Shown here one piece after another: positions 7,075 through 10,694 of a DNA stretch of 48,445 bases (its first letter is position 1; each line of letters starts with the position of its first letter). A program made the position numbers and the translations under genes. Origin of the DNA: a virus (Duplodnaviria > Heunggongvirae > Uroviricota > Caudoviricetes); the IMG/VR virus record IMGVR_UViG_2571042005_000001, positions 1 through 48,445 of that record, one strand, 5' to 3'. The notes under the pieces are model-generated. The model did no database searches. It was not told where the DNA came from and saw only the letters and a program-made list of their open reading frames with translations.

Positions 7075-7250
7075 GCGGCTACCCCATCGGTTTCCACTTC
7101 GATTTCGATGTTTCCGGTGCCTTCGCATTCGGGGCAGGTCACTTCGTCGATCTCGGGGTAAACTTGCCCGTTAGAGTATGAGCGGCTTGTTTTGAAGAGG
7201 GTTCCGTGGCCTTGGCAGTAAGTGCATTCGGTGGTTTCAAAGTGGGTCAT
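7071..7250 (-). CDS. 59-aa protein with DnaJ-type Zn finger (not in ORF track)
   Basis: MTHFETTECTYCQGHG...CPECEGTG; AAGGAG RBS from the family A leader. Confidence 0.75.
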   Translation of the reverse strand: MTHFETTECTYCQGHGTLFKTSRSYSNGQVYPEIDEVTCPECEGTGNIEIEVETDGVAA

Positions 7251-7346
7251 GTTGGTCTCCTTTGGGGTTGGGTGTCGCGCGTTTGCTTCCCGGCTGGGCG
7301 CGTCCTGATGTCATTTATTGTATATCGGATAGATATACTTGTCAAC
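7248..7346 (-). promoter_or_regulatory. Family A promoter/leader, copy 1
   Basis: TTGACA-17-TACAAT, palindrome GTATATC-N5-GATATAC, hairpin and RBS; 98/99 identical to 10596-10694. Confidence 0.9.
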
Positions 7347-7392
7347 AGGTGAAAACGCGAAAAAGCCCTTGTGGGAAACTGTAAAATAAAAT

Positions 7393-7417
7393 CGTTTAAC
7401 AGCTAACAGAAAACAGA
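7393..7417 (+). repeat. Heptad cluster upstream of parA (parS/operator-like)
   Basis: TAACAGC TAACAGA AAACAGA in tandem just upstream of the parA -10. Confidence 0.7.
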
Positions 7418-7454
7418 AAATGTTTAAATTCACACAATCTGCTATGATCGAAAA

Positions 7455-8009
7455 ATGGCAACCAACCAGAAATTTGTGATGGTGGCATCAGGGAAAGGCG
7501 GCGTGGGCAAAACCACCACTACCGTGCACCTGGCCTACCTGCTGCAAGGGGTGATCGTGGACCTTGACCCCAAACAATCCACCCAGTATTTCAGCAACCT
7601 CAAAAGCCCAGTGATTGGCCTGCAAGACACCCTGCCAGAGGGCATGAATGTGATTGTGGATTTGCCTCCAAGCGCAGAGCTGGTGCAGAAGTACGCCCAG
7701 CATTATGCGGCGGCCATGACCCATGTGATCATCCCGGTGCAGCCCACCGCTGAAGATTACGCACTGGCCCGCAACCTGCACGGCATTTTTTCGGTGTTTC
7801 CGAGGGTCAAAGTGGGCATCCTCCTGAATTTCCTCGGGAACGATCGGGATTCCAAAATTGCTCCTTCTTTGATCAAAGACACTTTCAAATGGGATTTGAT
7901 CGGCCAGATCGGTTACAAGCCTGCCGTTTTCAGATCGGTGCGCGCTGCCGGAATTTCCATTGATTCGGTGGACTGCTACATGCCCACCTGCTTGTGGGTG
8001 AACTCCTGA
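7455..8009 (+). CDS. parA: ParA family partition ATPase (short, type Ib-like)
   Basis: Deviant Walker A SGKGGVGKTT, VDLDP, IVDLPP, IIPVQP; TATGAT-6nt-ATG leaderless start. Confidence 0.9.
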   Translation: MATNQKFVMVASGKGGVGKTTTTVHLAYLLQGVIVDLDPKQSTQYFSNLKSPVIGLQDTLPEGMNVIVDLPPSAELVQKYAQHYAAAMTHVIIPVQPTAEDYALARNLHGIFSVFPRVKVGILLNFLGNDRDSKIAPSLIKDTFKWDLIGQIGYKPAVFRSVRAAGISIDSVDCYMPTCLWVNS

Positions 8010-8359
8010 TGGCTGCGAAAAAGAAAACCACTGAAGAACTGCTGGAGGAAAGACGCCAGCAGGTGATGCAACAAACCGAAAAAACCTCTGAAAACTGGAA
8101 GGCCCTCAAGGCCCCAGAGCTTCCCGCCATCAAGCCCACCGAGGCCTCTGCTTCATCACCAGTGCTCACTGAACTTTTGGGTTACCGGGTGAGTGAACGG
8201 CAAAAACAATGGCTGGCTTACCATGCCGAGCAGCAAGGCATCACCTTGACCTTGATGCTCGAGGAGCTGGTGAATGCCCGGTATGGCATGCCTCCAGAGA
8301 ACTGGGTTGCGCCTTCCCATTTGCGGAAGAAGCGCAAGAGCAGGCGTGGCCACCGTTGA
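8009..8359 (+). CDS. Small ParA partner, probable ribbon-helix-helix centromere-binding protein
   Basis: TGATG coupling to parA; flexible N-terminus then YRVSERQKQWLAYHAEQQGITLTLMLEELV (RHH-like). Confidence 0.65.
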   Translation: MAAKKKTTEELLEERRQQVMQQTEKTSENWKALKAPELPAIKPTEASASSPVLTELLGYRVSERQKQWLAYHAEQQGITLTLMLEELVNARYGMPPENWVAPSHLRKKRKSRRGHR

Positions 8360-8381
8360 GTTAGCTGTTAGTTGTTAAACA
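8357..8381 (-). repeat. Heptad cluster downstream of par operon
   Basis: Reverse complement TGTTTAACAACTAACAGCTAAC matches 5164-5185 at 20 of 22 positions. Confidence 0.7.
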
Positions 8382-8433
8382 TCAGACCTGCATTGCGCGG
8401 GTCTGTTTTTTTGGCTCTGGGAGCCAGAGGGGG

Positions 8434-8545
8434 CTGACAAGTACATCAATCTGATATACAATTAAATCAAGGAAAACGAGCGCCCAGCCGGGAAGCAAAC
8501 GCGCTCGTCACACCCAATCCAACCCCCTGAAGGAGAAGGACCATG
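8434..8545 (+). promoter_or_regulatory. Family A promoter/leader, divergent copy 2
   Basis: CTGACA-17-TACAAT; GTACATC-N5-GATATAC; stem ACGAGCGC/GCGCTCGT around the invariant loop CCAGCCGGGAAGCAAAC. Confidence 0.85.
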
Positions 8546-9649
8546 AATCACATTAACACCCTCAACCCCCTGCAAGCAACCGAACCCCAAAACATCCCCC
8601 TGTACCCCACCGACCCTGAACCCACCCCCCCAGCAGCAGGGAAAATCAAACCCACACCCAGCGAAAAGCACGCCGAAAAACTCGAACGGGCAGCCAGAGG
8701 TCTTGACGCCACCATCGTGCGCCTCAGCATTCCTGCATTCGCAGGCTGCAACCTCACCCGCAGGCGCGCAGACTTCCGGGCCCAAAAACAAGCCGAGCAC
8801 GACCACATGAAACAAGTGCAAGCCATCCTCCAGAAAATGGCAGAAGTGGCCCGCCAGAACCAACTGCCCAGCACCCTCAGCAAAATCACCCGCGCCAGCC
8901 AGGTCAAAGACCTCCTCAGGTGGTCCGGGTACCTCAACAGCACCGGCTACAACATCGAATACATCTACAGCATCCAGACTGAAAAAACCCTCAAAAGCCT
9001 CGGGTTTTCCTGTCTGCAAGACATGATCGATGCCTGCACTTGGGTGGCCACCTTTGACACCCCAGCGGACCCCACCATCAAGCGCATCCAGCAAATCGAA
9101 AGCAACCTGATCGGCACCAAAATCCCCGGATTTTTCCCCACCCCCAGACCCCTCATCAACGAAATGCTGCAATACGCCAGCATCCAGAGCGGCCATGTGG
9201 TGCTGGAGCCCTCCGCAGGCAAAGGAGACATCCTTGAAGCCATCCAGCAGGCTGAGCCTGCAGCGCAACTGCACGCCGTGGAAATCAACAGCACCCTTGC
9301 AGAACTGCTCACCCTGAAAGGCTTTACGGTGCACCAAGGGGACTTCCTGGACCTGACCGGTGAGTGTTTTGACCGGGTGGTCATGAATCCACCTTTCGAA
9401 AAAGGTGCAGACATCGACCATGTGCAGCACGCTTACAGCCTGCTCAAAGCAGGAGGCCGGCTGGTCAGCATCATGTGCGAAGGTCCGTTCTTCCGCAGCG
9501 ACCGCAAAAGCCAGCAGTTCAGGGACTGGCTGCAGCACGTGGATGCCACCATCCACCAGAACCCCGAAAACAGTTTCTCTGGTCCAGAAGCTTTCCGGGC
9601 CACCGGCACCCGCACCCGCATGGTGGTGATCACCAAGCAGGCCATGTAG
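8543..9649 (+). CDS. Orphan amino (N6-A/N4-C) DNA methyltransferase-like protein
   Basis: FFPTP, VLEPSAGKG (motif I) and VMNPPF (motif IV). Confidence 0.85.
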   Translation: MNHINTLNPLQATEPQNIPLYPTDPEPTPPAAGKIKPTPSEKHAEKLERAARGLDATIVRLSIPAFAGCNLTRRRADFRAQKQAEHDHMKQVQAILQKMAEVARQNQLPSTLSKITRASQVKDLLRWSGYLNSTGYNIEYIYSIQTEKTLKSLGFSCLQDMIDACTWVATFDTPADPTIKRIQQIESNLIGTKIPGFFPTPRPLINEMLQYASIQSGHVVLEPSAGKGDILEAIQQAEPAAQLHAVEINSTLAELLTLKGFTVHQGDFLDLTGECFDRVVMNPPFEKGADIDHVQHAYSLLKAGGRLVSIMCEGPFFRSDRKSQQFRDWLQHVDATIHQNPENSFSGPEAFRATGTRTRMVVITKQAM

Positions 9650-9749
9650 AACCCCCCAGCGTGTTGAGAAGGACGGCTTTGAAGCCGTCCCTTTTCAGCA
9701 AGTGAACATGAAAAAGGCCGGGATTCCCGGCCTTCCTTTGGTGCGTGGT

Positions 9750-10202
9750 TTAAACCAGTTGGTGCTGCCATTTTTTGCCGAGCACCTCGGCGAGCTTGTT
9801 GAGGGTTTGCAGGCTGTGGCCGAAGTAGAAGGGGTTTTTCATGCGGTTGATGGCGGCGGGAGCCGTGCCCATGCGGCGCGCCACTTCCCGTTCAGACATG
9901 CCAGATTCAGCCAGCGCTGCCTTGATGAGTTCGCTGATGGGGTTCATGGGTGCTGGTTCAATCCAGAGGGCTTCGGGGTTGTTGAAGTCCTCAAGTTCTT
10001 CGGCATCGATGTCTTCAAGGGTTTTGGTTTTGGCCTCGGGGATGGGTTGCCCGAGCTTCTGGAGGGTGTCGAGGTGCAGGGTCAGGCCTTGTTCAAGGCG
10101 TTCTTTGAGATCTTCTCGGGTTTGTGCGGTGGCGCTCACCTGGATGTCTACGAGGAAGCCGTTCCAGGATGTTTCGTGTGCGATGACTGCGAGGTAAGGC
10201 AT
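9750..10202 (-). CDS. hicB: HicB family antitoxin with C-terminal HTH
   Basis: SATAQTREDLKERLEQGLTLHLDTLQKLGQPIP followed by SEREVARRMGTAPAAINR. Confidence 0.85.
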   Translation of the reverse strand: MPYLAVIAHETSWNGFLVDIQVSATAQTREDLKERLEQGLTLHLDTLQKLGQPIPEAKTKTLEDIDAEELEDFNNPEALWIEPAPMNPISELIKAALAESGMSEREVARRMGTAPAAINRMKNPFYFGHSLQTLNKLAEVLGKKWQHQLV

Positions 10203-10270
10203 GTCTGGTCCTTTCTGGAGGTGCATGAGGCTCTTGGGAAGGGTGGGGGAGGGGGCAAAGCCCCCTCTGG

Positions 10271-10450
10271 TCATTTGAGTCCGAGTCGTTTCAGGTACTT
10301 GTTGAGCAGTCCTTTGTCGATGTCGTCCCCGTCGTGTCCTGCGATGGTTTCGAGTTGTCCATCTTTGCTCCACTGTTCGTGGCTGCCTTCTTGTCTGATG
10401 GGCTTCCACCCTGCCTTCTTAAAGAGCTTCCGAATTTGGCGGTATTTCAT
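10271..10450 (-). CDS. hicA: HicA family toxin, 59 aa (not in ORF track)
   Basis: MKYRQIRKLFKKAGWKPIRQEGSHEQWSKDG...IDKGLLNKYLKRLGLK with GSH catalytic motif; AAGGAGG RBS. Confidence 0.9.
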   Translation of the reverse strand: MKYRQIRKLFKKAGWKPIRQEGSHEQWSKDGQLETIAGHDGDDIDKGLLNKYLKRLGLK

Positions 10451-10468
10451 GCACCTCCTTATGTATTC

Positions 10469-10515
10469 ATGTTATCAAATTTGATAACATCTGTCAATAC
10501 CAAATTTGATAACAT
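10469..10515. promoter_or_regulatory. hicAB operator palindromes
   Basis: Perfect 22-bp palindrome ATGTTATCAAATTTGATAACAT (10469-10490) plus a degenerate second copy at ~10498-10515. Confidence 0.75.
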
Positions 10516-10529
10516 TGCCCTTTTTGTAC

Positions 10530-10560
10530 TCAGTTAGATGTTTGCTGTTTTCTGTTTAAC
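10530..10560 (-). repeat. Heptad cluster (parS-like)
   Basis: Minus strand AAACAGA AAACAGC AAACATC TAACTGA. Confidence 0.55.
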
Positions 10561-10595
10561 AATTAGGATTTTTGTCCTCCCAGAGCGGTTTAAGC

Positions 10596-10694
10596 GTTGA
10601 CAAGTATATCTATCTGATATACAATAAATGACATCAGGACGCGCCCAGCCGGGAAGCAAACGCGCGACACCCAACCCCAAAGGAGACCAACATG
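10596..10694 (+). promoter_or_regulatory. Family A promoter/leader, copy 3
   Basis: 98/99 identical to the reverse complement of 7248-7346. Confidence 0.9.

Follow-up and report, generated by a model that had tools for sequence, protein, structure and literature searches.

A leader hairpin repeated behind related promoters of a probable Deinococcus phage-plasmid

Family A leaders and their hairpin

The window studied here is a stretch of 48,445 nucleotides (nt) of viral DNA (IMG/VR record IMGVR_UViG_2571042005_000001) that corresponds to the initial 48 kb of C14, a 112,445-bp contig from a Deinococcus genome, presumably that of D. misasensis. It contains three promoter-plus-leader modules, located at 7248-7346 on the minus strand (copy 1) and at 8434-8545 and 10596-10694 on the plus strand (copies 2 and 3). 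In these modules, here called family A, a near-consensus promoter, whose spacer contains the inverted repeat GTATATC-N5-GATATAC, precedes a hairpin, a ribosome-binding site (RBS) and a start codon, in this order. The hairpin is a real feature of the modules and is probably functional. The explanation that we favor, with a probability of about 0.42, is that it acts in cis as a 5'-proximal RNA hairpin whose loop would be a recognition tag for an element-specific factor. A whole-genome search extended the family to five copies, all of them on C14 and two of them outside the window (copies 4 and 5), and found none on the other contigs. Although they are spread over both DNA strands, all five lie in sense orientation behind the same promoter, in the predicted 5' leader.

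The preliminary description of this DNA, which had reported the three modules of the window, proved accurate as to their existence and their relationships. The 25-nt core of the hairpin, GCGCCCAGCCGGGAAGCAAACGCGC, that is, GCGC-CCAGCCGGGAAGCAAAC-GCGC, is identical in the three of them (7277-7301 on the minus strand, 8480-8504 and 10641-10665 on the plus strand). The window contains three exact matches to its 17-nt loop, compared with a chance expectation of 0.37, and the promoter pattern TTGACA-17-TACAAT occurs three times at zero to three mismatches, where none is expected. Copies 1 and 3 are identical at 98 of 99 positions, their 99-nt arms (7248-7346 and 10596-10694) being 99% complementary. 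Both have a TTGACA-17-TACAAT promoter with the operator-like inverted repeat (7317-7345 and 10597-10625, respectively) and a hairpin with a 5-bp stem and a 17-nt loop (7276-7302 with the loop at 7281-7297, stem CGCGC/GCGCG, and 10640-10666 with the loop at 10645-10661). Copy 2 is diverged: its promoter, CTGACA-17-TACAAT (8434-8462), has three mismatches relative to that of copy 3, its flanks agree with those of copy 3 at only 31 of 56 positions, and its hairpin (8476-8508) has an 8-bp stem, ACGAGCGC/GCGCTCGT, around the loop (8484-8500). Copy 4 has its promoter at C14 70987-71015 on the minus strand and its hairpin, GCGC-ACAGCCGGGAAGCAAAC-GCGC with one change in the loop, at C14 70947-70971. 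In copy 5, also on the minus strand, the promoter (C14 111928-111956) is followed by the hairpin AGAGGAC-AGACCGCCTGGCAGCAAGC-GTCCTCT (C14 111884-111916, or L009 3884-3916), in which 12 of the 17 loop residues are kept and two are added. This last copy stands back to back with a small leaderless helix-turn-helix gene, a probable repressor, and the family A promoters are predicted to be repressor-controlled. The modules are mosaic, as copies 3 and 4 have their upstream region in common and copies 1 and 3 their downstream region.

The position of the hairpin is fixed relative to the promoter. In the five copies and in a homologue from D. roseus (see below), the loop starts 19-21 nt past the -10 box (6/6). 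The core starts 15-17 nt past it, in keeping with the spacing first given for the window copies, and the stem 11-15 nt past it, about 5-9 nt from the predicted transcript start. The gap between hairpin and ATG is instead variable (12, 25, 25, 27, 31 and 34 nt), so it is the transcript start, rather than the RBS, to which the hairpin appears to be tied. There is no T-run behind the hairpin. The Shine-Dalgarno (SD) sequence is unpaired or nearly so in most folds, copy 2 and D. roseus having a few weak and non-conserved pairs, and it lies at a variable distance from the hairpin; translational control by hiding of the RBS, which would be one form of the translational control initially proposed, is thus not predicted. 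A leader peptide was also considered and rejected, since copies 2 and 5 lack the ATG that closely follows the -10 box in copies 1, 3 and 4, and the frames opened by it are not conserved. These leaders measure 52-80 nt from the -10 box to the ATG, which is notable because the majority of Deinococcus mRNAs are leaderless (PMC4007540).

Evidence for selection on the stem and the loop

The hairpin can form in every copy, with stems of 4, 5, 7, 8 or 9 bp. Copies 1, 3 and 4 share a GCGC stem, extended in copies 1 and 3 by an outer C-G pair; copy 4 has C.A at this position. Copy 2 and D. roseus have the 8-9-bp stem ACGAGCGC/GCGCTCGT, and copy 5 has a 7-bp stem, AGAGGAC/GTCCTCT. Changes on both sides with pairing kept are found at pairs 2 and 3 (both in copy 5), 5 and 7. 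The compensatory changes noticed earlier within the window are a mixed case: the replacement of C-G by A-T at the first outer pair is real, but the third-pair G-C of copies 1 and 3 is weak because an A.A mismatch separates it from the rest of the stem. Copy 5, outside the window, provides the strongest covariation. Its 5' arm uses sequence found just upstream of the copy 1 stem (AGGAC) and its 3' arm has changed to match, and the probability of a 7-bp Watson-Crick stem arising there by chance is about 5e-4. Two covariance models were built, R1 from four sequences and R2 from five, D. roseus included. On copy 5, R1 gave no match even with filters off and R2 reached 9.7 bits (E 0.71) with two pairs dropped, so the table of pairs was made by hand. 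The minimum-free-energy z-scores of single copies (+0.5 to -2.8) are unremarkable, and the case therefore rests on the comparison of copies and not on thermodynamics.

The core is far better conserved than its surroundings. Between copies 2 and 3 it is identical at 25 of 25 positions, whereas the leader flanks agree at 31 of 56 (a core drifting at the rate of the flanks would give this with P about 3e-7). The loop of copy 2 equals those of copies 1 and 3, yet the 17 nt 5' of it and its outer stem resemble D. roseus. Together with the both-sided changes that keep pairing, this agrees with the selection on RNA structure that had been proposed, although only three independent versions of the stem are available. 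The loop had also been described as invariant. This is true of the three copies in the window, but not of the whole family, since copy 4 has one change, copy 5 five changes and a 2-nt insert, and D. roseus six. The residues common to all loops are G4 C5 C6. G8.. A11 G12 C13 A14 (GCC.G..AGCA). A conserved inner helix within the loop was rejected, as the inner pairs of the minimum-free-energy folds vary by copy; the only ones possible in all copies, G4-C13 and C5-G12, are both invariant.

A separate observation concerns the 9-mer AGGACAGAC, which is found exactly in the 5' arm of copy 5 and also in the spacer between RBS and ATG of another group of genes of the element, family B (window 12923, 16232, 16941, 18242, 19538, 19882, 22994, 25459 and 25936; C14 76581). 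Its distance to the -10 box is nearly equal in copy 5 and in the family B genes. Since the two have this 9-mer in common, copy 5 looks like a hybrid of both leader families.

The D. roseus homologue and the distribution of the hairpin

The methyltransferase gene behind copy 2 has a 56%-identical orthologue in the sister species D. roseus, and this orthologue has a homologous leader hairpin, AACGAGCGC-CAAGCCGGTCAGCAGGT-GCGCTCGTT. Its promoter, TGGAAT-17-TAAAAT, is unrelated to the family A promoter and lacks the operator, and only a few other genes are common to C14 and the D. roseus contig. Between copy 2 and D. roseus the stem is identical at 18 of 18 positions, the loop at 11 of 17 and the flanks at 40 of 56. 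The stem being kept while the loop has drifted behind an unrelated promoter, the structure would be conserved across species and the loop would be specific to the element. These comparisons suggest that the stem has been held across species and the loop sequence within C14.

Models R1 and R2 were run on 125 Deinococcaceae genomes. Only D. misasensis and D. roseus rose above noise; the best other matches (up to 30 bits) were terminator-like or coding hairpins and were rejected, so that the search revealed no larger family. In IMG/VR, the loop 17-mer gave two chance matches inside coding sequence and the promoter-operator pattern gave none. The metagenomes gave one chance match, without a stem. 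A degenerate pattern was uninformative in the GTDB genome contigs, where the matches listed include random ones in high-GC genomes. The D. roseus loop, searched at up to three mismatches in two sister genomes, returned only noise beyond the exact copy. Methyltransferase homologues with 41-45% identity in other Deinococcus (L049, L051, L052, L053 and L055) have a different short GC-rich hairpin, which is not homologous and was not retained as a family member; it lies about 10 nt 5' of the RBS, directly after the stop codon of the upstream gene (for example GCGGCC-CGGCGG-GGCCGC). Finally, Rfam 15 has no match at the gathering score in the whole window and, at E<=10 in 7200-10750, none that overlaps any of the hairpins, which agrees with the initial view of an unlisted motif. 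The hairpin is restricted to one replicon and to one gene cassette in a sister species.

The genes behind the leaders and their replicon

The first gene behind copy 1 (7071-7250, minus strand) encodes a protein of 59 amino acids (aa) with a DnaJ-type CxxCxGxG zinc ribbon. It is followed on the same strand by a 158-aa orphan gene (6598-7074) and a TGT/DpdA-like gene (5783-6601). Copy 2 is a separate transcription unit, since it is preceded by an intrinsic terminator (8383-8415, plus strand) located 3' of parA and the small gene paired with it. Its sole gene (8543-9649, plus strand) encodes an orphan S-adenosylmethionine-dependent DNA methyltransferase of 368 aa; 3' of this gene come a hairpin that was read by eye as terminator-like and was not called by the terminator scan, and then the convergent hicAB. 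The copy 3 operon (10692-12341, plus strand) is made up of genes for proteins of 57, 101 and 71 aa of unknown function and for a 300-aa DUF3560 protein. That of copy 4 has seven orphan genes with a terminator at the end. The copy 5 operon has five small orphan genes, a strong intrinsic terminator (C14 110077-110099, or L009 2077-2099, minus strand) and then a 484-aa gene that starts about 25 nt past this terminator and has no recognisable promoter of its own; a homologue of the 484-aa gene with 28% identity is present in D. roseus. Among the five operons, only this one has an internal terminator. Two of its five small genes are cysteine-rich, and one of these encodes a DnaJ-type zinc-ribbon protein (96 aa, L009 2848-3138, minus strand) with weak similarity to the 59-aa protein of copy 1 (E 8e-4). 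The 59-aa protein has weak PHROG matches to families annotated as 'anti-termination protein Q-like' (E 8e-6 and 8e-5); by Pfam and PDB it is assigned to zinc ribbons of the DnaJ and Anti-TRAP types. None of the first genes of the five operons has an N-like PHROG or Pfam match, N proteins being poorly conserved, and no homologues of the first genes of copies 4 and 5 were found within the Deinococcaceae.

C14 carries genes for a RepA-type initiator, ParA, HicAB and several DNA methyltransferases, as well as phage genes (terminase, portal, head, tail-fibre, endolysin). An identical 17-nt iteron, GACCTTTTTGTGTGGTT, is found at both of its ends (window 11-27 and 44-60; C14 112216-112445, or L009 4216-4445) and adjoins the gene of the RepA-type initiator (161-1543). 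Because of this common iteron, C14 is most likely a single circular phage-plasmid of about 112 kb whose assembly was broken inside the iteron array. The circular map places copies 5, 1, 2 and 3 in a region of about 11 kb surrounding the replication and partition genes. The segment with parA, the methyltransferase gene and hicAB is enclosed by copies 1 and 3, which amount to a near-perfect 99-bp inverted repeat whose promoters face outward; homologous recombination between its two arms could flip this 3.2-kb segment while keeping every promoter-gene link. An AT-rich box with CTGTT/AACAG repeats (e.g. TTCTGTTTTCTGTTTAACA) occurs at window 7395-7430, 8360-8385 and 10530-10565 and at L010 5040-5075 (minus strand), that is, 5' of parA, just 3' of the small gene after parA, and 5' of the promoters of copies 3 and 4. 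It could be a partition-protein site, the site of another regulator or an UP-like element.

Possible roles of the hairpin

Several scenarios may explain these observations. In the one that we favor, the operator-bearing promoters would fire on entry or derepression, and, within roughly the first 40-45 nt of each family A transcript, a stem of 4-9 bp would form at a distance of about 5-9 nt from the predicted 5' end. The stem would be a generic 5'-proximal structure, the part kept across species, and would present a 17-19-nt loop with the shared core GCC.G..AGCA. This loop may serve as the address tag for a trans-acting factor specific to the element, most likely a protein, which would set the fate of all the tagged early mRNAs jointly (those of the DpdA-like gene, the orphan methyltransferase, DUF3560 and the small orphan genes), through either 5'-end protection or translation yield. 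Both the existence of this factor and its effect on the mRNA are inferred.

A number of points weigh against this recognition-tag scenario. Three independent stem versions among six related copies are too few for a statistical test of covariation. Copies 1 and 3 are nearly identical and the modules are mosaic, so gene conversion could explain part of the identity of the core. The stems of copies 1, 3 and 4 (4-5 bp, -7 to -8 kcal/mol, z near 0) would be a poor design for a pure stabiliser. As all the stem pairs are Watson-Crick, an RNA hairpin and a DNA inverted repeat are indistinguishable. The transcription of the region and the location of the 5' end are deduced, and both the start site and the folding are predictions. 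As for the partner, the first genes of the operons are orphans among which no binding factor was recognised. CsrA (PF02599) and ProQ/FinO (PF04352) are absent from the genome (97% complete), and NusG (PF02357) is present only on the chromosomal contig C32, with no paralogue in the genome. The hairpin as a target of CsrA, of ProQ/FinO or of a NusG paralogue (of the RfaH ops or LoaP hairpin type) was accordingly rejected, the cognate proteins not being found. It was also rejected as an RNA anti-CRISPR (a solitary CRISPR-repeat unit), for the type I-E-like repeat of the host, CGGTTCATCCCCACGCCTGTGGGGAAAAC, has no similarity to it. Regarding an antisense partner, C14 has no complement of at least 12 nt to the core, and its one 11-mer and six 10-mers are at about chance level. 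In the host genome, codons 11-16 of a membrane-protein gene, probably a transporter permease (L005 1501-1517, or G000 C64 15099-15115), could pair with 16 of the 17 nt of the loop. No other near-perfect antisense match occurs in the genome, where about 0.03 would be expected at uniform composition, and this one is probably due to chance.

Another possibility is that the hairpin is a generic 5'-terminal stabiliser, the stem of which blocks 5'-end-dependent decay, and that the identity of the loops reflects concerted evolution without any role in recognition. Stem-loops of this kind are known from the 5' untranslated region of ompA in Escherichia coli and from the aprE and SP82 leaders in Bacillus, and like the hairpin of C14 they lie a few nt from the 5' end of the mRNA, independently of the distance to the RBS. 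The closeness to the predicted 5' end, the recombinant nature of the modules and the fate of the loop across species, where it drifts at the rate of the flanks while the stem is kept (11/17 against 71% flank identity, P = 0.37), would all fit this view. Yet in the known stabilisers the loop may have any sequence and is usually small, on a stronger stem, whereas the loop of C14 is large and conserved in sequence within the element, and a 4-5-bp stem with a 17-nt loop makes a weak stabiliser. Moreover, copy 2 has the loop of copies 1 and 3 in surroundings that resemble D. roseus, which gene conversion could achieve only through two separate short patches. We consider this explanation unlikely, if less so than the other rivals. 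Processive antitermination of the nut, put or LoaP-hairpin type, in which RNA polymerase, having just left the promoter, would be altered by the nascent hairpin, either by itself or together with a phage factor, and would read through terminators in early operons, seems improbable. The resemblance to lambda nut and HK022 put, on which the preliminary description drew, is that of a cis RNA hairpin early in the repressor-controlled early transcripts of a temperate phage; the constant distance between hairpin and promoter, the strong terminator of the copy 5 operon followed by a gene without recognisable promoter, and the Q-like matches of the first gene of copy 1 point in the same direction. The analogy does not hold in its details. 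In lambda, boxB combines a 5-bp stem with a GNRA-like loop of 5 nt and is preceded by boxA, whereas the hairpin of C14 has a 4-9-bp stem and a 17-19-nt loop, no conserved boxA-like element 5' of it, and a sequence between -10 box and stem that differs between copies. HK022 put, which works independently of any phage protein, is made up of two adjacent stem-loops of about 70 nt in total, whereas the element of C14 is a single hairpin of 25-35 nt, without a conserved second one in the folds. Among the first genes, no N- or Q-type protein was recognised; the sole lead toward a Q-dependent (qut) mechanism is the 59-aa protein, whose Q-like matches span only its zinc ribbon, and the only NusG of the genome is housekeeping. 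Read-through at copy 2 would be purposeless, given its single gene, the terminator-like hairpin and the convergent hicAB, and nothing useful lies beyond. The copy 4 operon simply ends at its terminator, and those of copies 1 and 3 have no strong internal one.

Alternatively, the 17-bp 'loop' could act in the DNA, as a roadblock of stoperator type or an asymmetric operator for a DNA-binding regulator, located at about +20 to +36, the RNA fold being incidental. Its size, asymmetry and orientation with transcription, just 3' of a promoter and in several copies on a temperate element, recall the stoperators of Cluster A mycobacteriophages, which are asymmetric, 13-17 bp long and transcription-oriented (PMC9283540), and stem pairs that are all Watson-Crick would suit this view. 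Nevertheless, stoperators have the sequence of the main operator, are scattered intergenically and require no flanking inverted repeat (PMC9283540), whereas the loop of C14 is unrelated to GTATATC-N5-GATATAC, is found only beside promoters (5/5 genomic copies) and has flanking stems that covary. Binding to a duplex gives no reason for an inverted repeat rebuilt with different sequences in copies 5 and 2, nor for a stem better conserved than the 'site' itself between copy 2 and D. roseus. This DNA-level role is about as doubtful as antitermination, or slightly more so. Least probable of all is a hairpin without function, carried as a passenger of a duplicated promoter cassette. The near identity of copies 1 and 3 and the confinement of the family to one replicon and one cassette would be expected in that case, but not the perfectly conserved core of copy 2 amid diverged flanks, the rebuilt stem of copy 5 or the persistence of the hairpin behind a different promoter in D. 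roseus.

Comparison with other systems and implications

The recognition-tag scenario also admits a more specific version, which we regard as quite unlikely: the phage-plasmid would encode a factor that binds the loop of all the repressor-controlled early transcripts and activates or protects the mRNAs of DNA modification and host takeover, thus creating an RNA-level regulon. The candidates would be the small DnaJ-type zinc-ribbon proteins of the copy 1 and copy 5 operons, in the manner of Mu Com, which has its binding site on the mom mRNA (PMC6483171). The Com-mom system (PMC6483171) likewise combines a small zinc-finger gene with a leader RNA structure ahead of a DNA-modification (anti-restriction) gene, and C14 has parallels in copy 1 (zinc ribbon and DpdA-like gene) and copy 2 (methyltransferase). 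The analogy is attractive because of these zinc-ribbon and DNA-modification genes behind the leaders, though membership in this system fails on both features checked: the zinc ribbon is of the DnaJ CxxCxGxG type and the Com family is not among the Pfam matches at E<=0.01, while no fold pairs the hairpin with the SD sequence and the RBS is not sequestered. If such a regulon existed, it would add a second, post-transcriptional layer above the operator, and the copy of D. roseus, in which the loop has drifted, would remain as an orphan limited to the structural role.

Control cassettes repeated along a phage or plasmid are familiar from the dispersed C1 operators of P1 and from the SAS and ESAS start-associated hairpins of Cluster K mycobacteriophages. 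In all of these, as in C14, one control module is reused before several scattered operons of a temperate element, and the module of C14 likewise combines an operator inside the promoter with a small conserved leader hairpin. The module is unrelated in sequence to these cassettes. SAS and ESAS are anchored to the start codon, whereas the hairpin of C14 is anchored to the transcription start. C14 also differs from these cassettes in having five copies only and in that, within the element, the loop and not the stem is conserved. The hairpin follows a familiar design in a new sequence, and its distribution is very narrow.

With a reach of one replicon and one cassette of a sister species, the interest of this hairpin is local and not general, pending a partner or a phenotype. 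If it is functional, it would be an undescribed cis-regulatory RNA in Deinococcus, a lineage with mostly leaderless mRNAs, by which a phage-plasmid would co-ordinate early genes of anti-restriction type (DpdA-like transglycosylase, orphan methyltransferase, DUF3560) post-transcriptionally, in addition to their shared operator. Promoter, operator and leader together form a compact and portable module of about 100 bp, which may be of use as an expression part in Deinococcus.

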